DNA of 61,702 bases from Candidatus Woesearchaeota archaeon (GCA_964457955.1 CAYWEY010000001.1:38277-99978); one strand, 5' to 3'; numbered from the stretch's first letter, positions 1-17,674 are shown. Notes: generated by a model from the letters alone, not told the origin. Made by a program: numbers and translations.

Positions 1-260
1 AGGAATGCTTGAGCAGTCTGGTCTATTAATTCTGCTTGTTCAGGAGGATATACAAAATTTCTCTCAGTGCTTAGTATTATATTAGTGACTGCTCCTGACG
101 AGATTATGTGGTCTGTAACTTTCTCCATGCACATTTCAGAATCTTCTATACTAGGATAATAAGGACATCCTGTGCAATCTATTCTGAGATTCCTCTCAGC
201 ACCTTCTCTTTCTATTTCAACTTTTTCACATGCGTCTTCGCCATATTTTGCTGCAGCCAT
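1..260 (-). CDS. hypothetical protein, N-terminal part only (gene runs off the left edge)
   Basis: ATG at 260-258 (minus strand), then an open frame to position 1 (MAAAKYGEDACEKVEIEREGAERNLRIDCTGCPYYPSIEDSEMCMEKV...). Absent from the ORF track because no stop lies in the window. Divergent from 337..744 across a 76-nt A/T-rich spacer. Confidence 0.5.
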   Translation of the reverse strand, partial: MAAAKYGEDACEKVEIEREGAERNLRIDCTGCPYYPSIEDSEMCMEKVTDHIISSGAVTNIILSTERNFVYPPEQAELIDQTAQAF

Positions 261-750: not shown

Positions 751-1362
751 TTGGCTGATAAAAAAAATGTTCCTGTTAAAGAAGTTATTGATATGAAAAA
801 GAAGGGAATGGATAATAATAAGATTATAAACGAGTTAAGGAAAAAGAATTATAATTATAAACAAATTAGGGATGCTCTTGAGCAGGCAAGTATTAAGAAG
901 AGTGTGGTTGGTTCTCCTTCAGGCGCTCCCAGCCCGCCTCCGGAAGGGCCTCCAGGCGCGCCTCCTTCAGAAGAGAGTCCTCCAGCAGCAGGACCAGCAC
1001 CTCCTTCTGGTATGCCTAAAAAACAATCAGTTGATATTGACCAGATTCAGCGAATTATTGAAGAAATCATAAGTGAGAAGTGGGAGGAGAGTGAAGAGCG
1101 TCTGAAAAAAATTGAAGAATGGAAAAGCAATATGAGTGCGCGTGTTGAAGGTTATGAGAAGCGGTTGGATGATTTCAGCAGTAGTTTGTCTAACATGGAG
1201 GGAGTTTTGAGCGAGAAAGCAGAAGAATTCAATGAGAGTATGCAGAATGTTGAGACTGAGATGAAGGCTTTGGAGAAAGCACTGAACAGGATTGTTCCAA
1301 GCCTGAGTGATAATATTAGAGAATTAAAAGATGTTGTTAGTGAAATGAAAAAAGAGAAATGA
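751..1362 (+). CDS. coiled-coil protein with small N-terminal helical domain and Pro/Ala/Gly/Ser-rich linker
   Basis: TTG start 7 nt after the previous stop, with GGAG about 10 nt upstream. The GC-rich island around 900-1010 encodes SPSGAPSPPPEGPPGAPPSEESPPAAGPAPPSG. The C-terminal half is coiled-coil-like. Confidence 0.6.
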   Translation: MADKKNVPVKEVIDMKKKGMDNNKIINELRKKNYNYKQIRDALEQASIKKSVVGSPSGAPSPPPEGPPGAPPSEESPPAAGPAPPSGMPKKQSVDIDQIQRIIEEIISEKWEESEERLKKIEEWKSNMSARVEGYEKRLDDFSSSLSNMEGVLSEKAEEFNESMQNVETEMKALEKALNRIVPSLSDNIRELKDVVSEMKKEK

Positions 1363-1363
1363 T

Positions 1364-1921
1364 TTATTTCTCCGCAGTCATCATGTAAGTTATTACCGCG
1401 AATAATACTAGAACGAATATTACTCCAACCACTTTAGGCTGAGTAACTACTGCCATCGGGTCCGTGAGTGTTTCCGGTGTTACTTCTTCTGTTGGTGTTC
1501 CTATACTAACGTTTCCACTTATTTCTGTACGAGTCTGATTAAGTGATATTGTCACTAATGAGAGTATTATTATCATTAGCATCATCCATACTGCGGGTTC
1601 TTTCAAGAATTTAACAATTGTTTCAGGCTTTAATCCCATCCACGTAATCAGCAATAATACTATTAGCAGGAATACAGCGAATATTAGGACTACAGGCATA
1701 AAATTAAGTATGAACCTGTTAAGAGTTAGGGAAACTATTGAAAGTATTCCTGCTGCTATTGCAACCATTGCATTAACGTCATGCCTGTCTCCGAATAGTT
1801 TTGATTTTTCAAGAACACCATACAATGCTGCTGAAACTATCATGAAAGGAACCAGAACATCAAATATTCCTATCTGATTAAGTACTTCAACTGCTTCCAT
1901 TGCTAAAGATGGTTCTGCCAT
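1364..1921 (-). CDS. polytopic membrane protein, paralogue family with 2504..3133
   Basis: Several hydrophobic helices. Shared motif IGIFDVLVPFMIVSAALYGVLEKSKLF (compare GFLDIVIPFILFYSIVFGMLERTQLF in 2504..3133). Last gene of the giant-protein operon. Confidence 0.7.
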   Translation of the reverse strand: MAEPSLAMEAVEVLNQIGIFDVLVPFMIVSAALYGVLEKSKLFGDRHDVNAMVAIAAGILSIVSLTLNRFILNFMPVVLIFAVFLLIVLLLITWMGLKPETIVKFLKEPAVWMMLMIIILSLVTISLNQTRTEISGNVSIGTPTEEVTPETLTDPMAVVTQPKVVGVIFVLVLFAVITYMMTAEK

Positions 1922-1961
1922 ATTCTTATAAATACTATTTTTTATATTATAAAATTTGTCT

Positions 1962-2498
1962 TTAATCCCTGTAGGCTTTTCCTACAGCAAGTCCAATAAG
2001 CAGGAATATTAAGAATATTATTGTGAATATTGCAAGAGCATCCATCCAATTAGTCATAAGCCAGTTTATTATTGGAGTAATCCAGTCAGTGTTTATTGAT
2101 AATTCTTTCAATCCCAGCCATACTGTTAGTATTATTCCTGCAATTATTGCTATAATCATTCCTTTCTCTTTATGCTCTGCAGGCATCACATAATATAGTA
2201 CGCTTCCTATTCCTATTGTGAATGCTGCGAAGAATCCGAAGAATGAGAGAACTTCAGCAAGAAAAGTTATGTAAGATACTGTGACAGTCATATAACCCAT
2301 TGCTATTGCAATAAGTATTCTAACACCCCTATATCTCGGGTCTTTGAATAATGGAGTGTATCCTGTTGCTGCGAATATTATGCTGAATACTAAGAAAAAG
2401 ATTAGGATGTACTCGATTCCTTGTGTTCCAGTTACATTCTCTATTACTGTTATTGCTTCTACAAACTGATTTATTGGGTCCAATAATGCATTAACCAT
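1962..2498 (-). CDS. polytopic membrane protein (diverged member of the same trio)
   Basis: Hydrophobic helices throughout. The gap to the upstream gene is 5 nt. Confidence 0.65.
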   Translation of the reverse strand: MVNALLDPINQFVEAITVIENVTGTQGIEYILIFFLVFSIIFAATGYTPLFKDPRYRGVRILIAIAMGYMTVTVSYITFLAEVLSFFGFFAAFTIGIGSVLYYVMPAEHKEKGMIIAIIAGIILTVWLGLKELSINTDWITPIINWLMTNWMDALAIFTIIFLIFLLIGLAVGKAYRD

Positions 2499-2503
2499 GA
2501 TAA

Positions 2504-3133
2504 TTATCCTTCAGGACGCCTTGTCACCAGCATTACTAATCCTATAATCACTGCGAGCACTACGAGGGGAATAATAGTGTTCATCACTTCAGGAGTGAGT
2601 ATGTCTGATATTTGGATTCCTAATATTTTTCCTGCCTGCATATTCATTAATGGAGTGCATGTTTCAGGATTGTTTCCTGTGCACGGCTCAACGAGTAATC
2701 CACTGTAATAAAAAGCGATTATTGCTCCTGCAAGCAATGCTGTTATTGCGAACCCCCAGCCTATAAAATTGTATATTTTATTATCTTTCTGCATTTCTTC
2801 AAATTGTTCTCCGAATATCATGGAGAGCGTGAGCATTACGCCTATAAGGATTAGGCTTATAACACTTAGTACTGGCAGGTATGCTCTTGTTATCCCTATT
2901 AGTTGGGCGGCGCTTGTTGCTGTTATTGCTATAGCGAAAGCAATCAGGCTGTGAAGATTAGTAAGTCTCTTACTAATTTTCTCTTCCTCAGGACGCTTGA
3001 ATAACTGCGTCCTTTCAAGCATTCCGAACACGATAGAATAAAAAAGTATGAAAGGAATCACAATATCAAGAAAACCCCACTCAGCCAAATACCTGAACCC
3101 AGTGGCGATAACACTCTCATTACCATTAGTCAT
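2504..3133 (-). CDS. polytopic membrane protein, paralogue of 1364..1921
   Basis: Shares the FLDIVIPF...FGMLERTQLF motif. Has 4-5 hydrophobic helices. Confidence 0.7.
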   Translation of the reverse strand: MTNGNESVIATGFRYLAEWGFLDIVIPFILFYSIVFGMLERTQLFKRPEEEKISKRLTNLHSLIAFAIAITATSAAQLIGITRAYLPVLSVISLILIGVMLTLSMIFGEQFEEMQKDNKIYNFIGWGFAITALLAGAIIAFYYSGLLVEPCTGNNPETCTPLMNMQAGKILGIQISDILTPEVMNTIIPLVVLAVIIGLVMLVTRRPEG

Positions 3134-3178
3134 AAAATAAATAATAAAAATTTAATACTTAAAAAAGTTTTTAACCCA

Positions 3179-5077
3179 CTATTTTAATAATTGATTAAGA
3201 GTATATTCTATCTTTTCCTTATTCTCTTTTATTTTCTTAAAATATTTTTCTTTCCCGTCCTTCCCCAAATTCATCATCTTTTCATAATATTCGTATATTT
3301 TTTTTAAACCATCCAAATCCTCGTTTTTAAGAATTTCTTTCCATATTTTTCCTTCATGCAAGTCAATATTCGTGTTGTAAAAGAATTGTTTAAGAACCCT
3401 GAGCAATATGAGCATTCTCCCTTTCAAAGTATGCTCTTCAGATAAAGTAAGATACTCCTCTATCCTTTTCTTCAACATTTTCTTGTTCTTTTCAACTAAA
3501 TCCTTACTTTCAACCTTTTTTTCGTAAGCTCTTTTAAATTTCTCCTTCAAATACTCTTTATAGAAATAACTCCATACATTAATCCATTCATCAATATTCT
3601 TTTTCTTCAAATCTTTAAATAATAAAAAGTTTTCATAAAAACCTGTTCTGAGCCTTCCGAAAAGAACTAATTTCGCGAATCCTGAAACTAAATAATTATT
3701 TTCATATTCTTCATTCTCTTTATCTAATCTTAACTTAACTAATGATTTAAAATAAGTTTTATTTTCATTACTTAATTTTTTGTAAAAATCATTGATATCA
3801 AAACTGTTTAATTCATCGATTATTTTCTTTAAATCTTTTTCATCTTCTAAATCTTTAAGCTTTGTTCTCATAATCTGTTCATAAAGATTAATATTCAGTA
3901 TTGAAGCAATTTTTTCAGCATATTCTTCAGGACTTTTTTTCTTCAGATTAAGTAATTTCTTAATATTACTGATTATTTCAAGAATGTTTTCAGGAATATT
4001 GGATAACAAATCCTGAACTTTCTTTTTAAAACTTTTATACTTATTCTTCTCAAGACTAGTCAAGTGTTCAGAATAATTCTCAAACAAATATTTTTTCAAA
4101 TCTACAATATCATCAACCATTTTTTCTATACCAAATATTTCATTAATATCATTATCTAAATTATTCATAATAAATTCTTTTTCAGGAAAATCAGAGCCTC
4201 CCTTATCAATAAAACCATACATTATTCGACTAAGAATTTTTTTGAAATCCCGTAAGAACTTATTATTCTCACGATAATATTTTGAAAAGTTAAAATAATC
4301 TGCTTTTATAAATTCATTAATTGCTTTAATATCATAAGAGTCCATAATACTCTCCAACCATTTCTTCAGAATTAAGTAAAAATCATGATGATTGTAAAAA
4401 AGAATTATTTGTCTATAATAAAATTTTGAATTAGTAATCATATAACGAGTATTAGCAACTTTTGTTTTACCAGACTTAAAAGAATCTTCAACTTTTCCTA
4501 TGGTCATGTTAATTCTCCCCAATTTTGGGAATTCATTTAATTTAAAATGTTCATAACAGTATTTTAGTCTGTTGAAAAGCAGTTCTTCACTGCCTGTTTT
4601 TTCTGATACTTTTTTTATTTTTTCCAAAACTTCTTCTTCATAATCATAATCAGGAAAATTAACAAGTATTTTGTCATAAAAATCTTCATCAACAAAATTA
4701 TAACAGAATAATTGGAAAAGACTTGGGTATTTTGTTAAAAAAGTTTTATCTTCCATAACACTTTTTTCTTCACTTATCCTTTTCATTTCTTTGAAATTTG
4801 AGAATAATTTTTTGAACCATTTTTTTTCTTCATTAAATCTATAATACATTTGGCTCAAACGATGAGAACTTAAATCCTCCAAAACCTGATATGTTCTAAA
4901 AATATTCTTGTCTTCAGGAATTTCACCTAATTCCTTATTTATCTTTTTTCTTAATTTTTTCTTTTCTTTATTCCCTACTTTTACGAATTTATAATCAGTT
5001 TTTTTAATGAATTCATTAAATTTTTTGACTAATTTCATACTGTTTCCTGACGCTTCTGAATTGCTTGCTGCACTCAT
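3179..5077 (-). CDS. large hypothetical protein (632 aa), K/E/N/F/Y-rich, no recognisable motif
   Basis: Long uninterrupted ORF. Its ATG overlaps the upstream stop (ATGA at 5074-5077). No TM segments or catalytic motifs seen. Confidence 0.75.
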   Translation of the reverse strand: MSAASNSEASGNSMKLVKKFNEFIKKTDYKFVKVGNKEKKKLRKKINKELGEIPEDKNIFRTYQVLEDLSSHRLSQMYYRFNEEKKWFKKLFSNFKEMKRISEEKSVMEDKTFLTKYPSLFQLFCYNFVDEDFYDKILVNFPDYDYEEEVLEKIKKVSEKTGSEELLFNRLKYCYEHFKLNEFPKLGRINMTIGKVEDSFKSGKTKVANTRYMITNSKFYYRQIILFYNHHDFYLILKKWLESIMDSYDIKAINEFIKADYFNFSKYYRENNKFLRDFKKILSRIMYGFIDKGGSDFPEKEFIMNNLDNDINEIFGIEKMVDDIVDLKKYLFENYSEHLTSLEKNKYKSFKKKVQDLLSNIPENILEIISNIKKLLNLKKKSPEEYAEKIASILNINLYEQIMRTKLKDLEDEKDLKKIIDELNSFDINDFYKKLSNENKTYFKSLVKLRLDKENEEYENNYLVSGFAKLVLFGRLRTGFYENFLLFKDLKKKNIDEWINVWSYFYKEYLKEKFKRAYEKKVESKDLVEKNKKMLKKRIEEYLTLSEEHTLKGRMLILLRVLKQFFYNTNIDLHEGKIWKEILKNEDLDGLKKIYEYYEKMMNLGKDGKEKYFKKIKENKEKIEYTLNQLLK

Positions 5078-7605
5078 GCTTCCACCTTCAAAACTTTACT
5101 ATCCAACAATTCTTTAACAGCATCTTTATCAATCAATTCTTTTTCTTCCATTTCTTTTTTGAATCTTTTTTTCGCTTTCTCAACAAAAGACTCATAATTT
5201 TCCAAACTCGCTCTTTTCAAAAACTTGTTTATATCTCCATAATCACCATCTCTTATAAATATTAATAAAGGAATACCGTGAAGCAGAAAATGATTAACGC
5301 ATTTCTCATTATCTGGTTTGTAATTCTTAAAAAAACGGTTCAGCATACTGAATATTTTTTTCTTAACTGATTCACTTAAACCTGCTTCATCTAAACGCTC
5401 TTTGAAAACATCCATATCTCCATCAGTTATTCCCTTAATCCTAGCAAAAAATTTTAGTTTCTTAAAGTCTTCAGGCTCAAAACCTTCCTCCAATTCTTTT
5501 ACTCTTCCAAAAAATTCGGATAAAGAAACATCTTTCTTGATTTCATCTAATTCTTCGCCATAAATTTTCTTATACTTCTCTTTTAATTCATTAATAAAGT
5601 CTTTGTGCAAAGTCCCTAAACCTTTTATTTGATTAATCAAGTTCTTCCATTCTTCATTATCCACATTATTCTTCCAATAATTGTTATAATCAGTAAATTC
5701 CTTAATTTTTTCTGAAAAATCTTCAAGTTTCTTAGTGAATTCTATACTATATGGTAATTCATAATTTTTAAGAAAACTCTTCAACTCTCTTTCAACATTA
5801 ATATCATCCAAATATTTCTTAATCTCCACAAATTTTTCCAAATCCTCATATTTCCATTCAAATTTTTTTTCTGAATACTCCTCTATTTTTTCATCTTCTG
5901 TTATTTTTTTCAAAAAACTTAATTTTTCTTTAATAGTTTCAACTCTTTCTTCATAAAAATTTTTAGAATTCTCCACAGCATTACTAAACTTACTAAAATC
6001 CTGAGGATAATCATCTGGTTTCTCATATAATAATTTGTTTATGAGTAAATTATAAATTTCATAATTCTTCAAAAAGAAATTAAAACTTTCCTCAAACTCT
6101 TTATACTCCCGAATGTCTAATTTATATTTATTACTTATTTGATTCATGCACTCATTCAACAGAGGTTTAAGAATATTATAATCACTAACATCGATATCTT
6201 CCTCCAGAAAATCATTAATGAGTTCAGTTTTCCTGAAATCATTAAAATCAAAAAGAAGGATTTTCTTAAAAGATTCATAATTCTCTTTTTTAAGTTCATC
6301 AATATCAAAATCTTTTCCTGCTAATTCTTGTTCAAAAATCTTGAAACCATCACTAATATTTTCCTTAACAAAATTCTCATCAACTTTTATTCCGAAAGCT
6401 TTTTTGTATAATTCTGCTATTTCTTCCCCTATACCTGCAGCTCCTTTTTCAACATTTCCTATCTTATTACCTAATATTTCAGAATAAAATTTAAAGCTCA
6501 TCTCTTCCTTCTTTTTCAAAGGTTTATATTCCTTAATTAATTCAACAACTTTTTCGTAACTATCAGCTTCAAGAATTCTTTCCTCTATTTTCTTAATAAC
6601 AGATAATCCTTGGTTTATAATGTTAATATTGTTTCGTCCGCCAATACTAACTTTTTCAAGAAAAGAAGTATCATATTTTTCTTCAAGGTCTTCACTAATA
6701 TTTAACTCCTCAAATTGTTCCAAAAACTTGATTAAAAAAACACTTGTTTTGTAAATGTTTTCTTTAATATTAACATCAACTCTGTAAGACAAGCTTGCCT
6801 CAAAATTTTCTTCATTAAAATCATAAGGTATTTCTTTAAAATAGTCCTCATAATTATTAAAATCAGTTATGTAAGTATTAAAATCATCAACCACTTTCTT
6901 AAGATTCTCTTTTCCTATTTCACCAAGTTTACTGAATAATTTTCTGTAAAAAAATAATTTTGTTATAAAAATAGAACTCACTCCATTACTCATACCCTTA
7001 AGTTCTTTCTTCCATTCATCAGGATTATAATTTATTTCATCGTCATCAATATCAAATTTTTTAAAATCGGAAGGCAATAATATTCTGATATTCTCTAATT
7101 TGGTGCGGAATTTTTCAACCTCATCAAAATACTTTTCCTTAAGTTCTTTATGTTCATTAATTATGTTTCTAATACATTCTTTAATCCCTCCAGGAGTAAA
7201 CATCATAACATAACTCCTATTCTCCCAACTTACCGATCCTAGAGAAGAAACTTTTGTATAGATATCTTCCGTGTAAATAAGCATTCCCATATATTCTTCA
7301 AACCTGTGTATGAGATTAAGACATTTTTCAAAATCAACATCTCCTGCAGTATTCTTTTTAAGAATGTTCTTGAATAATATTTTCACCAAATTATTAATTA
7401 ATTTTTTCTTGTTCTCCAGAATCTTTTTTTTATCTAAAGAACCATACTCATAATCAGGAATACTGGAATAAATTTTTTCATCATAATTTTTTTCTAAATA
7501 ATTTAACTGCTTCTCCACAGAACCATCCGAGTCAAATCTAAGGAATCTGTCTCTCTTTTCTTCTATTATTTTTAACAATTTTTTAAAATTCATGTTCCCA
7601 GTCAT
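5074..7605 (-). CDS. large hypothetical protein (843 aa), K/E/N/F/Y-rich, no recognisable motif
   Basis: Long ORF with ATGA overlaps at both ends (7602-7605 and 5074-5077). Confidence 0.75.
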   Translation of the reverse strand: MTGNMNFKKLLKIIEEKRDRFLRFDSDGSVEKQLNYLEKNYDEKIYSSIPDYEYGSLDKKKILENKKKLINNLVKILFKNILKKNTAGDVDFEKCLNLIHRFEEYMGMLIYTEDIYTKVSSLGSVSWENRSYVMMFTPGGIKECIRNIINEHKELKEKYFDEVEKFRTKLENIRILLPSDFKKFDIDDDEINYNPDEWKKELKGMSNGVSSIFITKLFFYRKLFSKLGEIGKENLKKVVDDFNTYITDFNNYEDYFKEIPYDFNEENFEASLSYRVDVNIKENIYKTSVFLIKFLEQFEELNISEDLEEKYDTSFLEKVSIGGRNNINIINQGLSVIKKIEERILEADSYEKVVELIKEYKPLKKKEEMSFKFYSEILGNKIGNVEKGAAGIGEEIAELYKKAFGIKVDENFVKENISDGFKIFEQELAGKDFDIDELKKENYESFKKILLFDFNDFRKTELINDFLEEDIDVSDYNILKPLLNECMNQISNKYKLDIREYKEFEESFNFFLKNYEIYNLLINKLLYEKPDDYPQDFSKFSNAVENSKNFYEERVETIKEKLSFLKKITEDEKIEEYSEKKFEWKYEDLEKFVEIKKYLDDINVERELKSFLKNYELPYSIEFTKKLEDFSEKIKEFTDYNNYWKNNVDNEEWKNLINQIKGLGTLHKDFINELKEKYKKIYGEELDEIKKDVSLSEFFGRVKELEEGFEPEDFKKLKFFARIKGITDGDMDVFKERLDEAGLSESVKKKIFSMLNRFFKNYKPDNEKCVNHFLLHGIPLLIFIRDGDYGDINKFLKRASLENYESFVEKAKKRFKKEMEEKELIDKDAVKELLDSKVLKVEA

Positions 7606-10600
7606 ATTAATGCATCCTCTAATTTAGGCAAATCCTTTAATAATTTAACAATCTTAAAATCATTATATAAGAAATCATATGATTCCGTCTCATCAGGTCC
7701 GGCTGTAGCAAATCTTCCAAGAACCTTACGATAAACTCTTTCAAGCTCTTCCTTAATGAACTCTCCTTCATCAATAGTGCTCAAATCAAAAACTAAAGCA
7801 CCTTCTAACTCTTTAATAACATCTCTGAATTCTTTCAAATGCTGAATGAACTTAACATATGATTTAATTGATTCTTTAACAGCAAAATAATAATTTTTAT
7901 CTAAATATTTTTGGGATTTTTCATCAAAATATTGATTTTTCACAATTTTAATTTTATTATATTTTCTAAAAACTGTTTCTAATTTATTAACAAAATCTTG
8001 GTAAAGATTTCTATCACCAACCATTTCATGAACAGGACGAATTGTGTTCCTTAAATAAATCATGAAAGCAAACTGTTTAAAAAAGAATTTCATTCTTTTC
8101 TTAACCCATTCATAATCTTCAGGAAACCCAAAATCCTGGTACGCAAAAACGCGGATGATGTCAAAAAAATCATAAAAATGTTCATCATCTTTTTCAATGT
8201 CTAAATCTTCTGCCTTTTCGGATAAGTCATAGAAATATTTTAACTCATTCTTTAACTCATCTACTACTCCTGGAGAATTAAAAAAAACATTCCTTTCCAA
8301 ATAATTCTTAAAATTATTAAAAGAGCTGAACTGTTTAAACCTAATCTTTCCTCCCTCCTCTTTAAAGATATTAATATCACTGTCTTCTTTACATAATTCT
8401 TCCTTAAGTTCCTCAATAACTTCACCAATCTTATCATCAAAAGTTTTGAAAGAATCAATAAAAATTTTAATTTTCCTAAACTTCTTAAAGTCATTTTCTT
8501 CTTCATTTATACTTCTTCTCTTTCTGTAAATTTGTTCATATAATTCTTTATTAGATTTATCTTTCTCAACTAGTTTATCAATAAGAACTTCATTATTCGC
8601 ATAATAATCAAGCTTATCCTTCAAAGAATCATAATATTTCATTACTTTATTCTTGAAATTTTTAAAATCAAAAGAATCATATCTTGATTTGAAATTATCA
8701 AAAATTTCTTCATATTTAGATGGATTTACAAACAAATTTAGTCTAGAATAAAAACTTTCTTCAGAAGGTGTGCTAATCGTCATCCCCCCTATTGTTTCTT
8801 CAACCTCTCCCCTAACTTCTTTATAATCCTTAAACCAAGTGCTTATCCTATACATTTCAGCTAAGTCTAAAAAATGATTATAAAAGAACAAAACCATCTC
8901 CCGTACATTCTCATCCAGGAATCCTTCTTTTTGCACATATTTAAGAAGAGGAAAGAATAATATCTTAACAAGGTCTTCATCAAGCTCAAAACTGTCTTCA
9001 TCAAAATTTTTATTAAAATATTTTTTATTATTCTTCTTAAAAAAAGAACCTATAATTCCAGAGAAATCATAATCCATAAAAATCTTGCCTCCAGAACTCT
9101 TCTTTATATTAATATCTCCTAATAGCTTTCTTTCAAAATCAATAGTTTGTCCATAGAGAATACTTTTCAAAATAAAAACAAGTCTGTCCCTCAAGTTAGC
9201 GTTATGTGTATTATTAAGATAATTTTCAAAATTATTAATCCATATTCCAGGAACATCACTTCTTCCAATTTCATTTAAAAAATCCCTGATTTTTCTATTA
9301 ATCGTATGCGATTCAATCTCAAAATCAGGTAGCAATTCTCCGAATTTTATTCCTGACTTCATAATATCAGCTTTAAAATTATTTATAAACTTCTCATCAT
9401 ATCCTTTTGCGACTTCATCAATCTTTCTTAATTCTTTTCTCTTTTTAACACCAACAGTTGAATCATACAAATTCTTTGCTAATTTTTTCTTAACCTTCTT
9501 ACCAGCACTAACTTCTTTTAATTTGTTTTCATAAACATCTTTCTCAACTTTTTCAGCAAGACTATTATACTCCTGGAACAATACTTGATTAACACCTGCC
9601 TCCTTCCTCCACTCCCTTATACGAGTAATGATTCCCAACTTGCGTTCCACTCTTTCAAAAGTAGGAATATTCTTCAAACGCAAATAATCATTAATATAAT
9701 AATCCATACTCTTAACAAGGTATGACTGAACATTATTAACTAATTTTAGATAAAAACTTTTGAAAGAACTCATCCTAGCATCATTCAAGACATGATTCTT
9801 CATATACTCCGGGCAAGTCTTCATCAAAATTTTTAAAAAAGAATTACAGAACACCATTGCCATATCTCTGCAGTAATTATTAAAACCTGCAACGAATAAG
9901 TGGCGGAAATCAAACACAATACTCCTCAAACTATCAAAAACTCCATTACTATAATAATCATAACGGCATGCAGGAATATTAAAATTCTCCCATAATTCTA
10001 AACTTAAATAACTAATAATTTGGTCAACAATTTTATCATGCTTCTTAACATATTTTCCTTTCAAATATTTTTTACGAAGAGATGATTTCTTAGCCGCCCT
10101 AGTTAAAATAGGAGAAGTAATATACCTAACTCTCTTATGCTTAAAACTCCTGTCACTGAATTTTAAGAAACTTATATTCCCCTCCTTATAAATGAATAAT
10201 TTGTTGGCTAAAGAATCAAACAAATTATCAACAAAATCCTTAACATAACCCTTATCAAAGGTTTTCCTGCTGAATTCATAATCTTCTGAATAATCAATAC
10301 CCTTATCATCATCAAGATCTTCAATCAAATAATTCAGCAATGCGTACATAACAAGGAACTGCTTGTCTCTTCTGTCCTTTCCTTTAAGGAACCACTTAAG
10401 CTTAAGTTCTTCTTCTTCCTTCACTAACTCCATGTGAGTTGATAAATAAGTGTTTGACAATGATAATAATTCAACAGCAGCATCATTAAAAAGGTCTTTT
10501 GGTTCAACTCCCCCCAATTTATCAACCAATTCACTCCTCTCCTCATAATACTTCTTGAACGATTCAGCTAAATAACCAAGAGCATAAATATCTGTATGTA

Positions 10601-11579
10601 GATTCTTAAAATGTTTAGAATATTTATTATAGTCTTTTATAACTTCTTTAAGACGATTAAATAAGTTTCTCATCACTTCAGCCCTGAAATCATCCTTAAA
10701 ATCACTATCATTTTTTTTCTTGTAAGCTTTCTTAAACTTTCTTAAACTGAAACCTCTCTCATACTTAATCCTCTTCTTAAAAACTTTATACATATAATCA
10801 GCGCATTTCTTAACACCATTCTTCTGAAGCAAGTAGTGAAAATTAATCCTGAAACCATTCTTAAAAACATTATTAAAATATTTCTCAAAACCAGTACCAT
10901 CAGCCATTCTTCTGTACTTACTAACATCTAATGATGCAAAACCATAATTTGTTGGAAGAGAAATAATTTTTTTTCCACCAAAAATCTCTTCCTCAATTTT
11001 CTTTCCAAAATTAAATAATATAATACCATTATTGTTTAAAGAAATCAAAATATTCTGAAAAGCAATAATGCCTGTAAAGATTATTTTAACTAATTCCTCA
11101 AAATTTTCTTCATCAGGAACATATGTTTTCTTAAGACGCTCAAGTTTAAAACGCAATTTTCGCAACTTATTCTGATACTTATCTGGAAGAGCAAACTTGT
11201 TAGGAATGCGATACTTCTCAATAAGTTCTGGAAAAACACTAGTATCAACTTTTTCAACAACACTGTATAATTCAACAAAACTATTAATAAAAGAACTATA
11301 GAGATTCGTGAATTCCTTATCCACTTCTTCATCAGGCTCGGGATTTGAAAAAATCATTTCCTTAACATAATCCCTGTTAACACTTCTTACACCATAATCT
11401 TTTCTTAAAACACCAACACCAAAACTACGCTTCCTTAAATCACTCATGCGCTTATGAGAAACTATTCCAGGAACACGAACTAATTTTCCGGATGGATAAA
11501 TAATCTTGCTTATTACTTTAAGAAAACTATCCTTAAACTTCTTACTTCTTTTTTTTAAATCCTCATAACTCTCAACCAT
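7602..11579 (-). CDS. giant hypothetical protein (1325 aa), no recognisable motif
   Basis: 3978-nt ORF. Its ATG (11579-11577) overlaps the TAA of the upstream membrane-protein gene by 1 nt. Confidence 0.8.
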   Translation of the reverse strand: MVESYEDLKKRSKKFKDSFLKVISKIIYPSGKLVRVPGIVSHKRMSDLRKRSFGVGVLRKDYGVRSVNRDYVKEMIFSNPEPDEEVDKEFTNLYSSFINSFVELYSVVEKVDTSVFPELIEKYRIPNKFALPDKYQNKLRKLRFKLERLKKTYVPDEENFEELVKIIFTGIIAFQNILISLNNNGIILFNFGKKIEEEIFGGKKIISLPTNYGFASLDVSKYRRMADGTGFEKYFNNVFKNGFRINFHYLLQKNGVKKCADYMYKVFKKRIKYERGFSLRKFKKAYKKKNDSDFKDDFRAEVMRNLFNRLKEVIKDYNKYSKHFKNLHTDIYALGYLAESFKKYYEERSELVDKLGGVEPKDLFNDAAVELLSLSNTYLSTHMELVKEEEELKLKWFLKGKDRRDKQFLVMYALLNYLIEDLDDDKGIDYSEDYEFSRKTFDKGYVKDFVDNLFDSLANKLFIYKEGNISFLKFSDRSFKHKRVRYITSPILTRAAKKSSLRKKYLKGKYVKKHDKIVDQIISYLSLELWENFNIPACRYDYYSNGVFDSLRSIVFDFRHLFVAGFNNYCRDMAMVFCNSFLKILMKTCPEYMKNHVLNDARMSSFKSFYLKLVNNVQSYLVKSMDYYINDYLRLKNIPTFERVERKLGIITRIREWRKEAGVNQVLFQEYNSLAEKVEKDVYENKLKEVSAGKKVKKKLAKNLYDSTVGVKKRKELRKIDEVAKGYDEKFINNFKADIMKSGIKFGELLPDFEIESHTINRKIRDFLNEIGRSDVPGIWINNFENYLNNTHNANLRDRLVFILKSILYGQTIDFERKLLGDINIKKSSGGKIFMDYDFSGIIGSFFKKNNKKYFNKNFDEDSFELDEDLVKILFFPLLKYVQKEGFLDENVREMVLFFYNHFLDLAEMYRISTWFKDYKEVRGEVEETIGGMTISTPSEESFYSRLNLFVNPSKYEEIFDNFKSRYDSFDFKNFKNKVMKYYDSLKDKLDYYANNEVLIDKLVEKDKSNKELYEQIYRKRRSINEEENDFKKFRKIKIFIDSFKTFDDKIGEVIEELKEELCKEDSDINIFKEEGGKIRFKQFSSFNNFKNYLERNVFFNSPGVVDELKNELKYFYDLSEKAEDLDIEKDDEHFYDFFDIIRVFAYQDFGFPEDYEWVKKRMKFFFKQFAFMIYLRNTIRPVHEMVGDRNLYQDFVNKLETVFRKYNKIKIVKNQYFDEKSQKYLDKNYYFAVKESIKSYVKFIQHLKEFRDVIKELEGALVFDLSTIDEGEFIKEELERVYRKVLGRFATAGPDETESYDFLYNDFKIVKLLKDLPKLEDALI

Positions 11580-12400
11580 TACTTAAACACCCTATCAAAA
11601 AACCTGCTCATCCTTGCTGAATGCTCTGAAACTTTAGAAGCTGGTTTTTTTACTTTTTTTACAGGAATTTTTTTCTCAGTCAATTTTTCAACTTCTTTAT
11701 CTTCTTCCCCTGCGCCTCCAATTCCTCTTTTCTCCCCCTCTTTTTTCTTCTTTTTCTTCCTTTCTTCCTTTTTTTCTTTTTTCCTCTTGAATGTTCTTCC
11801 TCCCTCACCACCTGGCACGTATACTGGAGCACTTCCTCCAGTAACAAAACTGAAAAGAGCGATAAAACCAACAATTAATGCTATAATCACTCCACCAATA
11901 ACTACTCCCTGCACAGTATTATCATATTCCTGCAAAAAAGAATCTTCTCCAGTAACAGAACCTCCTAAGTCAAGAACTCCTGTAAAAAAAATAAGATAAA
12001 TAATGGCTAATAAGAAAACAATCACGATGAAAATCTTAAGCTTCTTACTCTCAATAGTTGACAATCCTGCAATCATTAACAATATTGGTCCGAGAAAAGT
12101 GAAAACAATATAAAAATTACTAACCCATTCCATAACAAGAGGATTATTCATTAAAAACAAAGTGCTTAGTCCAGCAATACTAATACTGATTAATAAAGCA
12201 AGAATACGGTTCTCTTCACCCCTTGCACGCATAAGTCGGGCAATACTTATGAAAACAAGAGAGAATACGCTAACAAAACTAAATATTAGAATCCATACCT
12301 CACTCTCTATCATGCTTGTTTCAAAAAAACCATTTTCTTCCTGGGAGAAAACAGGAGATACGATTATTAGTAAAATTAATAAGTAAGTATAACTACGCAT
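11579..12400 (-). CDS. signal-peptide/polytopic membrane protein with poly-Lys/Glu C-terminal tail
   Basis: N-terminal signal-like segment MRSYTYLLILLIIVSPVFSQ, about 5 hydrophobic helices, tail KRKKEKKEERKKKKKKEGEKRG. The core is paralogous to 15216..15623. Confidence 0.7.
   Translation of the reverse strand: MRSYTYLLILLIIVSPVFSQEENGFFETSMIESEVWILIFSFVSVFSLVFISIARLMRARGEENRILALLISISIAGLSTLFLMNNPLVMEWVSNFYIVFTFLGPILLMIAGLSTIESKKLKIFIVIVFLLAIIYLIFFTGVLDLGGSVTGEDSFLQEYDNTVQGVVIGGVIIALIVGFIALFSFVTGGSAPVYVPGGEGGRTFKRKKEKKEERKKKKKKEGEKRGIGGAGEEDKEVEKLTEKKIPVKKVKKPASKVSEHSARMSRFFDRVFK
11722..11788. repeat. 67-nt uninterrupted homopyrimidine (plus strand) / homopurine tract
   Basis: Read directly: only c/t from 11722 to 11788. 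Encodes the K/E/R tail of 11579..12400. Confidence 0.9.
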
Positions 12401-12474
12401 GAATAATAAAAAGATAAGTAGAAATAAAAAAGTTTTGAAAAAAAATAAAAAAGAAAAAATTCAATATAAATACT

Positions 12475-12882
12475 ATGAAAAAGAACAAGAAGAAACTAAA
12501 AAAAATATTTGGAGCAGCACTTCCAGTCATACTTATTGCAATATTGATAGGAACGAGTTTCCAAGTATTCTTAACAAACAACAATAATAGTGGTGGAGGA
12601 AAGAAACCTGTAACAATATATTTGGGTTTCAGAATAAATAACCAAAGTTATCCTTATCAGCCAGTTAATACTTATGAAAACACCAGTATTGCACAATTAT
12701 TATATACATACACTAAAGGAGGAGTAAGTCTTCAGAGTGATGGCAGCATAAAATGTATAGGAAATATATGCAACAGCATACAAGAGAATAGTTTCTGGAC
12801 AACCAAAGTTAATAATGAGACAATAACAGATAATAGAAGAGAATTAAAACAAAATGATTACGCGTTCTTAATATATGAATAA
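12475..12882 (+). CDS. membrane-anchored small protein, DUF4430-like C-terminus (tentative)
   Basis: K-rich N-terminus plus one TM helix (IFGAALPVILIAILIGTSF). The C-terminal pattern FWTTKVNNETI...LKQNDYAFLIYE resembles the W.y.vNg...l.dGD.i.f.y pattern of DUF4430. Confidence 0.45.
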   Translation: MKKNKKKLKKIFGAALPVILIAILIGTSFQVFLTNNNNSGGGKKPVTIYLGFRINNQSYPYQPVNTYENTSIAQLLYTYTKGGVSLQSDGSIKCIGNICNSIQENSFWTTKVNNETITDNRRELKQNDYAFLIYE

Positions 12883-14423: not shown

Positions 14424-15219
14424 AGTTGCTTCTGCAAACGCAGTTCCTGAAGAAACTAAGACTTACAGATTCGACAATATTATTGAACCTATTGCTGAAA
14501 ACTATCTTCCATTCTTCTACAATCATGCAGATGTGATTATTGCTCCAACAAAATTCACTAAATCAAGATTAAGAGAATTAGGTGTTAAAAAAAGAATAGA
14601 ATTAATAAGCAACGGTATTGATACTAAAAAATTTAAGTATTCAGAAAAGAAAAGAAAAATTTTCAGAAAAAAATACAATATTAAAAAAGAAGATGTTGTT
14701 GTTTACATGATTGGAGGCATTTGTTTAAGGAAAGGAATTGATACATTCCTGGAAATTGCTGAAAGAATACCAGAATACACTTTCGTATGGATTGGAAAAC
14801 ACTTCTTAAACAAATTCTTTGAAAAAAAATATGGCAGGGTTGAGAGAATGATTAAAAACGCGCCTGAAAACGTATTATTCACAGGATTCGTTGACGACAT
14901 AATAAGCGCTCACTGTGCAGGAGACATATTCTTCTTCCCCAGTTATGCAGAAAATGAAGGAATAGCAATACTAGAGGCAGGAAGCTGCAGAAGACCAGTA
15001 ATAGTAAGGAATATTATGCCTTATGATGAATGGTTGTTCAACAATAAGAATTGCTTCAAATTCAATAATGAAGAAGAACTTGAGAAAAGTATAAGAAGAC
15101 TGGGAGAAGATGAAAAACTAAGGAAAAGAATGGGAAGAAGAATGCGAAAAACGGCTGAAAAAAAAAATATTAGTAAAACAGGAAAAAAATTAATCAAGAT
15201 GTATAAGTCACTTCTTTAA
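14407..15219 (+). CDS. GT4-family glycosyltransferase, C-terminal domain (frame +1)
   Basis: GT-B C-terminal domain signature: FTGFVDD...FFFPSYAENEGIAILEAGSCRRPVIV (E..G...EA...G.PVI). Continues the 14217 fragment after a 1-nt shift. Confidence 0.8.
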   Translation: MCKKPKVASANAVPEETKTYRFDNIIEPIAENYLPFFYNHADVIIAPTKFTKSRLRELGVKKRIELISNGIDTKKFKYSEKKRKIFRKKYNIKKEDVVVYMIGGICLRKGIDTFLEIAERIPEYTFVWIGKHFLNKFFEKKYGRVERMIKNAPENVLFTGFVDDIISAHCAGDIFFFPSYAENEGIAILEAGSCRRPVIVRNIMPYDEWLFNNKNCFKFNNEEELEKSIRRLGEDEKLRKRMGRRMRKTAEKKNISKTGKKLIKMYKSLL

Positions 15220-15623
15220 TCACATATACAATTACAGCTTCCGATTGTTACAAAAGAATAATCCTCTGTTTTGAAAACAATAAGCCAGTAAAGGAATAAT
15301 AAGAAACCTAAAACGAACAATATCAGCCACTTATCCCGATTAGTTGATGCAACAAGACTAAGTCCTGAGAGTATTACAAAACCAAGACCAAGAAATGGAA
15401 GGAATAAGAAAACCTTGCTTATAATAATCATACTCCACGCATTATTGGTTATGAACAAAACACTCAATAAACTAATTGATATACTTACAAGAAGTGTGAG
15501 TAGTGGATTATTATCCTTCCTATGCCTCATCATATAAGATAAAGGTATATAGACAAAACCAAAAATAAGGAAGAAAATAAGCAATAATACTGCTTCATCA
15601 TTAAATATGGAGAAAAGAGTCAT
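15216..15623 (-). CDS. polytopic membrane protein, paralogue of the 11579..12400 core
   Basis: LLTLLVSISISLLSVLFITNN...FLGLGFVILSGLS aligns with LALLISISIAGLSTLFLMNN...FLGPILLMIAGLS. 4-nt overlap with the ABC ATPase gene. Confidence 0.65.
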   Translation of the reverse strand: MTLFSIFNDEAVLLLIFFLIFGFVYIPLSYMMRHRKDNNPLLTLLVSISISLLSVLFITNNAWSMIIISKVFLFLPFLGLGFVILSGLSLVASTNRDKWLILFVLGFLLFLYWLIVFKTEDYSFVTIGSCNCICD

Positions 15624-16498
15624 ATACTCACTTCTTTAAGTTCACCATTATGCCTGTCACTTATTACTTTACCATCCTTAAGCCGGATAACGCGTTTAAC
15701 GTACTGTAATAGTGTCTCATCATGAGTAACCATTAAAAAAGTAAGTCCTTTATCCTCATTGAGTTTGCGCATAATTCTTACAATAGACTTGCCTGTCTTA
15801 CTGTCCAATTGTCCTGTAGGCTCGTCAGCAAGTATTATGTGGGGCTTATTAATCAAGCTGCGGGCGACACTAACTCTCTGTTTTTCACCACCACTTAATT
15901 CACTCGGCACATGATTCATACGCTTATCAAGCCCGAAATCATCCAATAATTTCTCAGCATACTTCTTCTTCTCCCTGCTCACACCAAAAGGAACAAGCGG
16001 AATAGTCACATTCTCATAAGCACTAATGTTGGGAATGAGATTAAAAGTTTGGAAGATGAAACCAATCTTTTCATGCCTGATATTCGCTAACTGGTTTTCT
16101 TTCAACTTGCTCACGTCCTTGCCATCCAGAAATACTTTTCCTTCTGTAGGAGTATCCAAACACCCAATCATGTGAAGAAGAGTGCTCTTGCCACTTCCGC
16201 TAGGACCCACAACAGCAACAAAATCTCCTTCATTAATCTTAAAACTTATATCACTAATAGCATGAACCTCATTGTGTTCTCCAATATTATAATATTTGGA
16301 AAGATTCTTGACTTCAATAATAGGTGGAGTTGATTTATTATCAAGGAATTCAATAAGTGTTTTACGATTCTTATTCTTCTTCTCGTAATCAAGCAATTCT
16401 TTTAATTCCTCCCTGCCAAAGTTCTTCTTATTAATCGTTTTCTTCACTTCATCAATACTTCTTTCCATGAACTTTTTATTCATAATAGCTTCATACAC
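15620..16498 (-). CDS. ABC transporter ATP-binding protein (MacB/LolD-type) with about 60-aa N-terminal extension
   Basis: Walker A GPSGSGKST, signature LSGGEKQRV, Walker B ILADEPTGQLD, H-loop VTHD. Confidence 0.9.
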   Translation of the reverse strand: MYEAIMNKKFMERSIDEVKKTINKKNFGREELKELLDYEKKNKNRKTLIEFLDNKSTPPIIEVKNLSKYYNIGEHNEVHAISDISFKINEGDFVAVVGPSGSGKSTLLHMIGCLDTPTEGKVFLDGKDVSKLKENQLANIRHEKIGFIFQTFNLIPNISAYENVTIPLVPFGVSREKKKYAEKLLDDFGLDKRMNHVPSELSGGEKQRVSVARSLINKPHIILADEPTGQLDSKTGKSIVRIMRKLNEDKGLTFLMVTHDETLLQYVKRVIRLKDGKVISDRHNGELKEVSI

Positions 16499-16507
16499 TC
16501 CTTTATT

Positions 16508-17674
16508 TTAATATCTTATCGCCTCAACCGCTTCCATATGACTACTCCTATATGCAGGGTACAAACTGCCCACAAAACCCAGAGTAAGAGCAAAAAGCAT
16601 TGCTTGTCCCAATAATTCAACAGTAATCTTAATAGGGATTGCAGTATAGTACTCAACCATATAACCTACACCATAACCAAGACCCATACCTAATACTCCG
16701 CCAACAATACTCAATACTACTGACTCCATAATTATCATAATCATAACATGCTTGTCCTGCCAGCCCACAGCCTTAAGCACACCAAACTCTTTAATACGCT
16801 CCATAACACTCATAAGCATAGTATTCATAACACCAATTCCACCAACAATTCCTGCAATAGCACTAACCCCCCATAATGCTGCAGTAAGATTATCTAAAAA
16901 ACTCATTAACTGGTCACTATAACTCTGAACATCAAAAACAGCAAGCTCGTCTTCAAAACGAAGTTCTATGCGGGACTTAACACTTCTTAAATCAGACGGG
17001 TCTTTAGGAATTACTTGAAAATTATTAACTATATCTTCATCCACATTAACTATTTCTCGAACTTCATCAATATGTCCTACAATGAAGAATTCAAAAATAC
17101 GCGCATCAGTTTCAAAAATTCCTATAACATGATAAGTCTTGTCATTAATTCTCATACTGCTCCCTACAAAAAGATTCATTAAATCAGCAAGAGTTCTTCC
17201 AACCATGACTCCCCGCATATCACTTGAAGAAATTTTTCTTCCTTCAACAACATTATAATAAGGACTGGGTTCATAACCTTCTGACCTTACAGGATCAATC
17301 CCTACAACGAAAAGCATGTTAGCGATTGCTTCAGCACCTGCAAGAATCCTGTCACTACTGCCAAGATTAATGCTTCTTACTTCAATACTGTCAGCAGTAC
17401 CCCATACTTCAGGAGTAACTAATTCAACACCCCTCACGTTCTCAATTTCATTAATCTTATCCTTATCAATGAAGCTGAAAGGAACATCAATTGCTCCTTC
17501 CTCAAGAATCCATAAACTCTGGAAAGTTCCTAAAACATTATTCGCTCTTTCAGCAATACCTAAACTAACACTCACTAAACTTACGATAGCACCGACTCCA
17601 ATCATTACACCAAGAAGTGTTAAAAAACTCCTTCTCTTATTTCTCAAAACGTTGCGGAGGGATAACTTAATCAT
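16508..17674 (-). CDS. ABC transporter permease, FtsX/MacB-type
   Basis: N-terminal TM, large periplasmic-type domain, then the C-terminal FtsX helices (GIGVMNTMLMSVMERIKEFGVLKAVG). Confidence 0.85.
   Translation of the reverse strand: MIKLSLRNVLRNKRRSFLTLLGVMIGVGAIVSLVSVSLGIAERANNVLGTFQSLWILEEGAIDVPFSFIDKDKINEIENVRGVELVTPEVWGTADSIEVRSINLGSSDRILAGAEAIANMLFVVGIDPVRSEGYEPSPYYNVVEGRKISSSDMRGVMVGRTLADLMNLFVGSSMRINDKTYHVIGIFETDARIFEFFIVGHIDEVREIVNVDEDIVNNFQVIPKDPSDLRSVKSRIELRFEDELAVFDVQSYSDQLMSFLDNLTAALWGVSAIAGIVGGIGVMNTMLMSVMERIKEFGVLKAVGWQDKHVMIMIIMESVVLSIVGGVLGMGLGYGVGYMVEYYTAIPIKITVELLGQAMLFALTLGFVGSLYPAYRSSHMEAVEAIRY
16748..16848. repeat. 101-nt tract identical to 17914..18014
   Basis: Compared base by base. 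Identical inside otherwise diverged paralogous permease genes. Confidence 0.95.

Follow-up and report, generated by a model that had tools for sequence, protein, structure and literature searches.

Archaella are equipped with cytoplasmic accessories such as ArlX, the ArlCDE rings and, in Pyrococcus and Thermococcus, a polar cap or cone; each is a large structure in the cytoplasm, in some cases anchored to the membrane, around a FlaI-type ATPase. To our knowledge, the proteins of the polar cap or cone have not been identified. In the terminal organelle of Mycoplasma, the cytoskeletal proteins HMW1/2/3, P65 and P200 scaffold a polar adhesion apparatus. Archaeal TFF/T4P-like loci have been catalogued (Makarova, Koonin & Albers 2016, PMC4858521; Sivabalasarma & Albers 2026, 10.64898/2026.04.22.720090), and these catalogues know cytoplasmic coiled-coil accessories for the TFF subclade 4F; for the nanoarchaeal ATPases of the 4F clade, no pilins were identified in the 2016 paper (PMC4858521). 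In the Tiddalikarchaeum paper the annotation goes no further than 'pilus type IV (FlaIJK)' (PMC8561730). An attachment organelle with a cone, a portal, a gate and a 7-8 nm filament has been described in cultured Nanobdellota, and its genes are not known (PMC11420986, PMC11104419, 10.64898/2026.06.04.730037); cones are mentioned in PMC11420986.

Here we analysed a stretch of archaeal DNA of 61,702 nucleotides (the window), in which seven minus-strand genes at 1364-12400 encode a putative membrane anchor, three giant proteins (giants 1, 2 and 3) and three small membrane proteins (TM-A, TM-B and TM-C). The region probably encodes an undescribed accessory of a cell-surface filament machine. More specifically, we tentatively favour the possibility that the giants are cytoplasmic proteins, tethered to the membrane, which serve a type IV filament-like machine specific to Nanoarchaeia as accessories or as a scaffold; the physical assembly, the cytoplasmic location of the giants, their scaffold role and the link to a filament are what we infer.

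As in archaeal TFF loci, the block to which the region belongs has a FlaI/GspE/CpaF-family ATPase followed directly by a platform-size polytopic membrane protein, and in the relatives of the block proteins with an N-terminal TM segment come after the platform-like gene. Unlike those loci, the block has no match to a described TFF component among the seven genes, and its platform-like protein is not recognised as T2SSF. In the papers on TFF loci that we consulted, no locus is described with three paralogous 5-TM proteins, nor one with a membrane anchor and 1.6-2.8 thousand residues of TM-less giants. The seven proteins differ from the archaellum accessories in that they have no sequence similarity to them (Pfam FlaC_arch, NCBIfam archaellum models), the FlaC_arch, FlaD/E and KaiC-like FlaH models of Pfam and NCBIfam giving no match, and the organisms here are not known to use the locus for motility. 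The Nanobdellota organelle comes from the same phylum and is a large repetitive assembly at the cytoplasmic membrane through which a filament passes. The likeness is no more than an analogy: thermoacidophilic Nanobdellales are the archaea in which the organelle was seen, whereas our loci belong to Tiddalikarchaeales and unclassified 'Nanoarchaeia'/'Nanoarchaeota' MAGs, and its cone is described on the outer membrane face whereas the giants are predicted to be cytoplasmic. The Mycoplasma organelle proteins are, like the giants, large, fast-evolving and domain-poor; they are cytoplasmic and belong to a reduced, AT-rich, host-dependent cell (PMC4669176), but they are bacterial, unrelated in sequence and without association with a TFF ATPase.

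Seven genes in two putative transcription units

The seven ORFs run in the same direction and fill 99% of 1364-12400 with coding sequence, all on the minus strand. The first encodes the anchor protein (273 aa, 11579-12400), for which a hydropathy scan gave a signal-peptide-like N-terminus, five TM segments and a K/E/R-rich C-terminal tail. It is followed by giant 1 (1325 aa, 7602-11579), giant 2 (843 aa, 5074-7605) and giant 3 (632 aa, 3179-5077), all soluble and without a known domain; the start of giant 1 overlaps the stop of the anchor gene (TAATG), and ATGA overlaps join giant 1 to giant 2 and giant 2 to giant 3. TM-A (209 aa, 2504-3133), TM-B (178 aa, 1962-2498) and TM-C (185 aa, 1364-1921), each with five TM segments, lie after gaps of 45 nt (giant 3/TM-A), 5 nt (TM-A/TM-B) and 40 nt (TM-B/TM-C). 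The ORFs, the three overlaps and the 5-45 nt gaps are all as a sequence-only reading of this DNA had described them.

One might suspect that the large ORFs are artefacts, either non-coding sequence or a misassembly, as homologue searches with the giants came back empty. However, the longest stop-free run is 1326 codons, whereas in 200 shuffled controls it averaged 105 and never exceeded 177, and the codon-position composition is coding-like across the region (GC1>GC2, purine-rich first position). Identical giant-region proteins were found on two contigs, one of them the independent Logan assembly SRR7048218, the 209 aa gene is present in SRR7048219 too, and the architecture is kept at other loci. 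These observations effectively refute the artefact explanation, and the seven genes are real.

An identical 12-mer, the BRE/TATA-like element AAAACTTTTTTA, precedes both the 273 aa gene (12425-12436, minus strand, 26-37 nt upstream) and the 209 aa gene (3160-3171, minus strand, within the 45-nt gap and 27-38 nt upstream). Allowing one mismatch or none, it has 20 matches in the window against 7.2 expected, and several of these AAAACTTTTTTA-like matches precede a start codon by 22-47 nt. Upstream of the anchor gene there is an equivalent element, CATAACCTTTTTATTAAAA, in L003, L018, L019, L007 and L002 (locus names as listed below), and a counterpart, AAACATTTAAAATAT / TAACCTTTTTAATAT, stands at the same distance upstream of TM-A in 10/10 related loci; promoter-like elements are conserved at three sites, namely before the anchor gene, TM-A and the ATPase gene. 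Because such an element precedes the 209 aa gene as well as the 273 aa gene, here and in every related locus, two transcription units of four and three genes are probably a better description than the single seven-gene operon originally proposed.

A conserved block around a secretion ATPase

Nine further distinct loci whose flanks are informative, every one from Nanoarchaeia, conserve the block (loci compared: L002, L003, L005/L006, L007, L008, L011, L015, L017, L018 and L019). Proteins of the slot held here by the anchor and giants come first, then TM-A, TM-B and TM-C. Wherever the contig extends further, there is next a pair of coiled-coil genes on the reverse strand, then the gene for the T2SSE ATPase and one for a polytopic protein of ~680 aa. 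The outer flanks vary between loci. The cassette as read from this one genome keeps its gene order in related genomes.

TM-A, TM-B and TM-C occur in the same order in 10 Nanoarchaeia loci. TM-A has 14 homologues, Nanoarchaeia without exception, at 37-54% identity; its invariant residues include E40, T42, Q43, H61, TAT71-73, C151 and C159, and in the predicted N-out/C-in topology the conserved Cys pair lies in the last outside loop. TM-B has an orthologue at the same position in every related locus, and TM-C has orthologues in 9 loci (E 1e-44 to 5e-53), those in L002, L003 and L005 being 46-48% identical. Profile comparison with hhalign gave 97.9% for TM-A vs TM-C, 94.3% for TM-A vs TM-B and 98.2% for TM-B vs TM-C, where the TM-B figures may be inflated as the TM-B set wrongly took in the TM-C-type L017_217. 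Judged by these profiles, the three are ancient paralogues of one another. The AF2 model of TM-A (pLDDT 63.7) found no Foldseek or PDB match. A MntP/LysE-type transporter was considered for TM-A and rejected: the Pfam Mntp score of 20 bits is below the cut-off of 24.4, and sub-threshold matches were seen in only 4/15 members of the family. Nor does TM-A look like a prepilin peptidase (PibD/FlaK, two catalytic Asp), since it has five TM segments and no invariant Asp; a Pfam peptidase match is absent from all seven proteins.

The two coiled-coil genes of the window are divergent (plus strand). The 203 aa protein (751-1362) has a small N-terminal domain, a Pro-rich linker and a coiled coil; its orthologues in L002, L003 and L005 are 39-44% identical, equally placed and equally oriented, and every other full-length locus has a gene that corresponds to it in size and orientation. 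The 135 aa protein (337-744), whose orthologues are 48-51% identical, is a paralogue of its 203 aa neighbour's C-terminal half (5e-5). Searches of NCBIfam, and of Pfam at a permissive threshold, returned generic coiled-coil noise only for both, with no match to the FlaC_arch, FlaD/E or KaiC-like FlaH models. A secretion ATPase of the FlaI/GspE/CpaF type, 764 aa long, has its first 86 codons at 1-260 (minus strand) and the rest beyond the window start; the protein was taken from window 260-1 plus L001 16518-18812. The ATPase has an N-terminal Cys-rich motif, scores 82.7 bits with Pfam T2SSE (cut-off 24.9), matches afGspE (2oap, 9e-33), FlaI (4ii7, 9e-25) and CpaF (2e-24) in the PDB, and is 66-67% identical in L002, L003 and L005. 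On these matches, the gene, which stands beyond the coordinates of the seven, encodes a TFF-superfamily ATPase of the GspE/PilB/FlaI family.

In every locus the stop of the ATPase gene is overlapped by the gene for a ~680-689 aa polytopic protein with a cytoplasmic N-terminus and ~8 TM segments, for which sequence searches of Pfam (T2SSF), NCBIfam and PDB gave no match. In the relatives, this platform-like gene is followed by genes whose products have one hydrophobic segment, at the N-terminus, for example a 365 aa protein of L003 that starts MNDELLKGLILG, and these downstream proteins may be pilin-like. At the other end of the region, a divergently transcribed gene (12475-12882, plus strand) encodes a 135 aa protein with one N-terminal TM segment that matches a 207 aa gene of L003 (BLAST 6e-6); a 205-215 aa gene stands in its place and orientation in L007, L018 and L019, by position only. 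This gene is possibly part of the block.

TM-A/B/C belong to a larger block that runs past the seven genes and the window start, and the earlier picture of a self-contained set bracketed by membrane proteins is not supported. The seven proteins could still be one stoichiometric cytoskeletal or coat-like complex that is independent of the ATPase: the start/stop overlaps and short gaps speak for it, as do the 5-TM, N-out/C-in topology predicted for the anchor and TM-A/B/C alike and a weak hhalign similarity of TM-B to the anchor (67%). We consider this distinctly unlikely, because promoter-like elements divide the set 4+3, and because at every locus TM-A/B/C still have the ATPase and the coiled-coil genes as their neighbours whereas the giants change beyond recognition.

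The anchor, the giants and their slot

The K/E/R-rich tail of the anchor is predicted to be cytoplasmic; the loop charges obey the positive-inside rule with the tail inside. The 273 aa protein is homologous to the first slot gene elsewhere (L007_366 at 1.5e-6; the L019_1315 N-terminus at iE 6e-7), these E-values deriving from small-database searches with TM-rich sequences, and an iterated search joined L002_428 and L003_521 to the family. A paralogue lies at 15216-15623, and PHROGs gave a weak match to a membrane protein (4.3e-5). In two genomes the anchor is fused N-terminally to the giant region (L018_869 and L019_1315), and the anchor family with its promoter element holds the first slot position in six loci; in the L005/L006/L008 lineage it was not seen in a hydropathy scan of the slot proteins. 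By these similarities the 273 aa protein is a member of a conserved family of anchors that is giant-fused in two genomes. The fusions link the giants to the membrane, in line with the membrane association suggested earlier, and because the anchor topology puts the tail inside, the fused giant part would be cytoplasmic.

The same fusions bear on whether the giants are exported, as effectors or host-contact proteins that are moved by the ATPase machine and evolve fast through a host arms race. The giants adjoin a secretion-type ATPase and diverge very rapidly relative to their neighbours, and cultured Nanobdellota depend on host contact via elaborate organelles (PMC11420986, PMC11104419). However, the giants have no signal peptide of any class, the giant region in L018 and L019 is fused to the end of the anchor that is predicted to be cytoplasmic, and the substrates that TFF machines are known to export are pilin-like and carry a class III signal peptide (Makarova 2016, PMC4858521). 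Export of the giants thus seems improbable.

Walker A, DEAD/DExH, HExxH and CxxC motifs are absent from the three giants by regular-expression search, and a hydropathy scan detected neither TM segment nor signal peptide, except for one borderline hydrophobic helix in giant 1 (residues 163-181); the motif-less, TM-less character first ascribed to them is confirmed, and the same scan found no TM segment or signal peptide in the giants of any locus. Searches of Pfam, NCBIfam, PHROGs, PADLOC and PDB gave no match for any of the three, and their family is not recognisable among 1.84-5.8 billion proteins. Giant 1 matches itself alone among 5.8 billion proteins (word index), its residues 1-1200 gave the self-match alone in 1.84 billion representatives (exhaustive phmmer), and it has no phage match; for giant 2, the slots of the other loci hold no relative. 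Residues 211-486 of giant 1 are weakly homologous to residues 278-540 of L002_1035, the first giant of L002 (BLASTP E 7e-5, SW z=8.1, hhalign P 0.0014, 296 columns). This is the sole homology trace for the giants of the window, and L002 (Tiddalikarchaeum) is the closest relative.

The composition of the giants had been described as K/E/N/F/Y/I/L-rich and Gly/Pro-poor. They stand out only by high F+Y (13-15%) and low G+P (4-6%), while their K+E of 22-28% is ordinary, being inside the 17-29% range of the soluble proteins of this genome (PolB 20%, NFACT 26%); their G+C is 26-29% vs 30-37%. The single-sequence AF2 model of giant 3 is all-alpha, but with a pLDDT of 37. The giants are probably all-alpha, as the model suggests, whereas the long helical scaffolds of the sequence-only reading find little backing in a model of this pLDDT, and canonical coiled coils are disfavoured because the composition is aromatic-rich.

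Among closer relatives the giants are homologous, with 29-37% identity between genomes whose TM-A proteins are 64-76% and whose ATPases are 86% identical, and giant identity decays smoothly. On these comparisons the giants hold a conserved slot yet evolve very fast, and a divergence close to the limit of sequence comparison would explain their lack of homologues.

The contents of the slot differ in number and size among loci. HNH and AbiEii genes are found in the slot of L018, and a Metallophos-domain protein in that of L003; unrelated cargo is therefore tolerated there. The anchor and giants may themselves be lineage-specific conflict, defence or selfish cargo in a hypervariable hotspot, with no functional link to the TFF-like block: the giants of the window have no detectable similarity to most slot proteins elsewhere, and with their own promoter and lower G+C they could have a function apart from that of the ATPase block. 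This is unlikely in our view, given the constant first position of the anchor family and its promoter element, the smooth decay of giant identity in closer relatives and the match of giant 1 to L002_1035 at the same position. In addition, PADLOC-DB gave no match for the anchor and giants of the window or for six giants from L002, L003 and L007, tblastn gave none in 50,697 phage records, no relative was found in IMG/VR, and there is no tRNA gene in the window and no integrase-type family among the genes scanned.

A possible filament machine of Nanoarchaeia

In the accessory or scaffold reading that we tentatively favour, the region would be the upstream half of a Nanoarchaeia-specific block built around the TFF-type secretion ATPase. 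A first unit with its own promoter would supply the 5-TM anchor, its K/E/R tail inside, and the three large soluble, translationally coupled giants, which would assemble on the anchor tail at the inner membrane face as a fast-evolving cytoplasmic scaffold or accessory layer rather than as enzymes. From a second unit, also with its own promoter, TM-A/B/C would most likely form a hetero-oligomeric membrane subcomplex. Together with the two cytoplasmic coiled-coil proteins, the ATPase, the platform-like protein and the N-terminal-TM proteins, both units would make up a filament-assembly or secretion machine.

DPANN/Nanobdellota archaea live attached to other cells, and the source organism is one of the tiny symbiotic archaea of this kind (DPANN/Nanoarchaeia). 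The attachment organelles and filaments seen by cryo-tomography are elaborate, but no genes have been assigned to them. The block, which is conserved across Nanoarchaeia, joins a pilus-type motor to four uncharacterised membrane protein families and to membrane-tethered giants, and so supplies concrete, testable candidate genes; the giants keep their position, promoter and anchor despite their divergence, and such genes are easily dismissed as noise. It is a long shot that the whole block is, in these obligate symbionts, a Nanoarchaeia apparatus that builds and gates a host-contact filament or attachment structure, with the giants as a large cytoplasmic base that diverges as hosts change. If this host-contact reading is true, these genes would be the first gene candidates for DPANN host-attachment organelles.

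Seven genes in two probable transcription units

All seven minus-strand ORFs proposed at 1364-12400 lie exactly where the sequence-only reading had placed them, and the start/stop overlaps it described were seen (TAATG at 11581-11577, ATGA at 7605-7602 and 5077-5074); the other neighbouring genes are separated by 45, 5 and 40 nt. Coding sequence fills 99% of the region, its codon-position composition is coding-like, and its longest run without a stop is 1326 codons, compared with a maximum of 177 in 200 shuffles. The seven proteins were found on two contigs, one of which is an independent Logan assembly of SRR7048218, and the gene of the 209 aa protein (TM-A, encoded with TM-B and TM-C) is present also in SRR7048219.

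The seven genes had been taken for a single operon. However, a 12-mer, AAAACTTTTTTA, is located 26-38 nt upstream of two start codons, that of the 273 aa gene and that of the 209 aa gene, and equivalents are kept in related loci upstream of the anchor gene (the 273 aa gene in the window), the TM-A gene and a nearby ATPase gene. Because these predicted promoter elements precede both genes and are kept in relatives, the genes probably form two transcription units of four and three genes, with read-through possible. Similar elements are enriched in the window (20 matches against 7.2 expected) and occur 22-47 nt upstream of several starts, for example at 44619-44630 (+), 42318-42329 (+) and 39317-39328 (+); the element looks like the BRE/TATA consensus of the organism, with very short leaders.

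The three giant proteins (1325, 843 and 632 aa) lack Walker A, DEAD/DExH, HExxH and CxxC motifs, as claimed, and the claim that they also lack TM segments and signal peptides holds apart from one borderline hydrophobic helix. Their supposedly unusual composition has to be stated more softly, because their K+E content of 22-28% is what soluble proteins of this genome (~31% G+C) normally have, and only their F+Y (high) and G+P (low) are unusual. None of the seven proteins had a significant match in Pfam, NCBIfam, PHROGs or PADLOC, nor had giants from other loci in Pfam or PADLOC. Searches of PDB sequences were empty for the giants of the window, for the TM-A profile and for the platform-like protein encoded after the ATPase. 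The 1325 aa protein retrieved only itself in a word-index search of 5.8 billion proteins, as did its residues 1-1200 when 1.84 billion representatives were searched exhaustively with phmmer; the 843 aa protein was likewise its own sole match in the word-index search. A metagenome scan for closer relatives yielded just four short contigs, BLAST among the three giants detected no internal repeats and no paralogy, and AlphaFold2 gave for the 632 aa protein alone an all-alpha model that was unusable (pLDDT 37). A viral origin was ruled out, as the 1325 aa protein had no match in phage genomes or IMG/VR. As judged by these comparisons, none of the seven genes belongs to any described family.

A block conserved around a T2SSE ATPase

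Homologues of TM-A were found (14 in total) and their contigs were inspected. The check for conserved gene order in relatives was positive: nine further, distinct loci whose flanks are informative share one order, read on short contigs only to the contig end, in which a slot of large Pfam-less proteins is followed by the small proteins TM-A, TM-B and TM-C (about 220, 150-204 and 188 aa, respectively), two coiled-coil genes on the reverse strand (about 200-240 and 136 aa), a T2SSE ATPase (~762 aa), a polytopic protein (~680 aa) and proteins with one N-terminal TM segment. Identity to the window proteins is 66-67% for the ATPase, 46-48% for TM-C, 38-54% for TM-A, 25-40% for TM-B and 39-51% for the coiled-coil proteins. 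The relatives of the conserved genes are all Nanobdellota of the class Nanoarchaeia, including Ca. Tiddalikarchaeum anstoanum, so the window comes from a DPANN archaeon without a close sequenced relative. The outer flanks of the block vary from locus to locus; the block is thus kept beyond ordinary order-level synteny decay, which suggests a functional link between its genes.

The ATPase gene of the window organism starts at 260 and runs past the window start. Its closest PDB relatives are archaeal GspE (2oap), FlaI and CpaF, and the Tiddalikarchaeum paper labels it type IV pilus and nothing more (PMC8561730). Its sequence places the ATPase in the type IV filament (TFF) superfamily, to which the platform-like protein and candidate pilins of the block may belong as well. 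The N-terminal extension of the ATPase (~300 residues) begins with a Cys motif that may be a zinc-binding module, C-x17-C-x2-C ... C; the motif is conserved, being seen in the orthologues and at 16518-16640 of L001, another contig of the organism (window 260-138 (-)).

TM-A, TM-B and TM-C form three orthogroups whose order is fixed in 10/10 related loci, and the orthogroups are mutually paralogous (hhalign 94-98%, where the TM-B figures may be inflated by one misplaced TM-C-type sequence). From loop charges, the small proteins are predicted to have five TM segments with an N-out/C-in topology. A Cys pair in the last outside loop is invariant, and so are E40, T42, Q43, H61 and TAT71-73. The lack of an invariant Asp rules them out as prepilin peptidases. 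AF2 gave for TM-A a model with a pLDDT of 63.7, and its Foldseek search against PDB returned only noise (E>4) and no structural neighbour. Sub-threshold matches to Pfam MntP (manganese efflux, LysE superfamily) occurred in 4/15 members of the TM-A family (best E 5.6e-4; TM-A at window 2504-3133 (-)), and may reflect chance TM similarity or a remote relationship.

Neighbours in the window include a family B DNA polymerase, NFACT, Lhr, Mrp antiporter subunits and a MacB-type ABC transporter. A MacB/FtsX permease pair and ABC ATPase lie upstream of the slot in the window (15620-18828 (-)) and in three related loci (L003 1-960, L007 72-3122, L019 1-2187), so the conserved neighbourhood may reach beyond the block. 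Two adjoining, paralogous Mrp/NuoL-type antiporter subunit genes (402 and 458 aa; 21254-23835 (-)) are followed by that of an 8-TM protein without a Pfam domain (23832-24722). Further large Pfam-less ORFs encode 518 aa (25400-26956 (-)), 876 aa (26965-29595 (-)) and 683 aa (29616-31667 (+)); the last is a paralogue (8e-13) of a 233 aa protein (33050-33751 (+)), each with one hydrophobic segment. In the related locus L018, the slot is preceded by HNH endonuclease and AbiEii genes and three Pfam-less paralogues (279, 596 and 335 aa), all at 952-7284, and TM-C is followed by two inserted genes (186 and 129 aa), a pattern that points to local insertion of mobile or defence elements. Immediately before TM-A, L005 (9459-9974) encodes a 171 aa protein with a Walker A-like GKKNVGKT near its N-terminus and no window counterpart.

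The anchor and the fast-diverging giants

The 273 aa protein belongs to an anchor family with a signal peptide, five TM segments and a charged tail, whose members hold the first slot position in L002, L003 and L007. In L018_869 and L019_1315 the first ~190 residues are the anchor domain, and the giant region is fused to it; this is the strongest argument for a partnership of anchor and giant. Judged by the positive-inside rule, the tail of the 273 aa protein, and by extension probably the giants, should lie in the cytoplasm, a location that speaks against the alternative that the giants are exported cargo. A 135 aa 4-TM protein at 15216-15623 (-), whose gene overlaps that of the MacB-type ABC ATPase (15620-16498) at the stop of the latter, is a paralogue of the anchor's TM domain (BLAST 1.6e-13, phmmer 7.5e-14).

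The slot proteins, which lack TM segments and domains, add up to 1.6-2.8 thousand residues per locus, and Metallophos in L003_911 is the only enzymatic domain among those scanned. A ~125-aa repeat occurs in six tandem copies in the 1266 aa protein of L003 (L003 3361-7161) and singly in the fused region of L018_869 and L019_1315; its HMM, built from the L003 protein, matched no window protein. Giants are homologous among closer relatives and diverge very fast: they share 31-38% identity, in fragments, between L003 and L018 (TM-A 76%, ATPase 86%), 37% between L005 and L008 (TM-A 75%) and 29% between L019 and L015 (TM-A 64%). As no relative exceeds 54% identity to the window TM-A, this trend predicts that homologues of the window giants should be undetectable. 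One trace survives, between residues 211-486 of the 1325 aa protein and 278-540 of L002_1035, which comes first among the giants behind the anchor in the closest relative (BLASTP E 7e-5 as a single comparison, 26% identity, 296 columns; Smith-Waterman z=8.1 against shuffles, 20 other pairs z<=3.8; hhalign P 0.0014). No other pair emerged when the window giants were compared with all other slot giants by hhalign and Smith-Waterman shuffle tests, and a two-sequence profile of the region recruited no further members. In our reading, the giants are positional orthologues whose evolution has taken them to the limit of detection. Their F+Y content is 13-15%, compared with 2% in the true coiled-coil neighbours, a contrast that weakly suggests helical bundles or solenoids as more likely than coiled coils.

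A possible accessory set of a filament-type machine

The gene-level observation was confirmed, and its interpretation as a membrane-associated complex was borne out in part. The best-supported interpretation, ahead of a variable island, a self-contained complex or exported cargo, is that the genes encode accessory components, so far undescribed, of a TFF-like machine specific to Nanoarchaeia. TM-A, TM-B and TM-C would form a hetero-oligomeric membrane subcomplex around the FlaI-like ATPase and the platform, and the giants would form an anchor-tethered cytoplasmic layer, also around them. A bolder reading links the block to the attachment organelles of Nanobdellota, to which no genes have been assigned (PMC11420986, PMC11104419, 10.64898/2026.06.04.730037). 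The cone of that organelle is reported on the outer membrane face, whereas the window giants are predicted to be cytoplasmic, and we therefore consider this link improbable. In the preferred reading, the TFF-type system of these archaea would carry components without a known counterpart.
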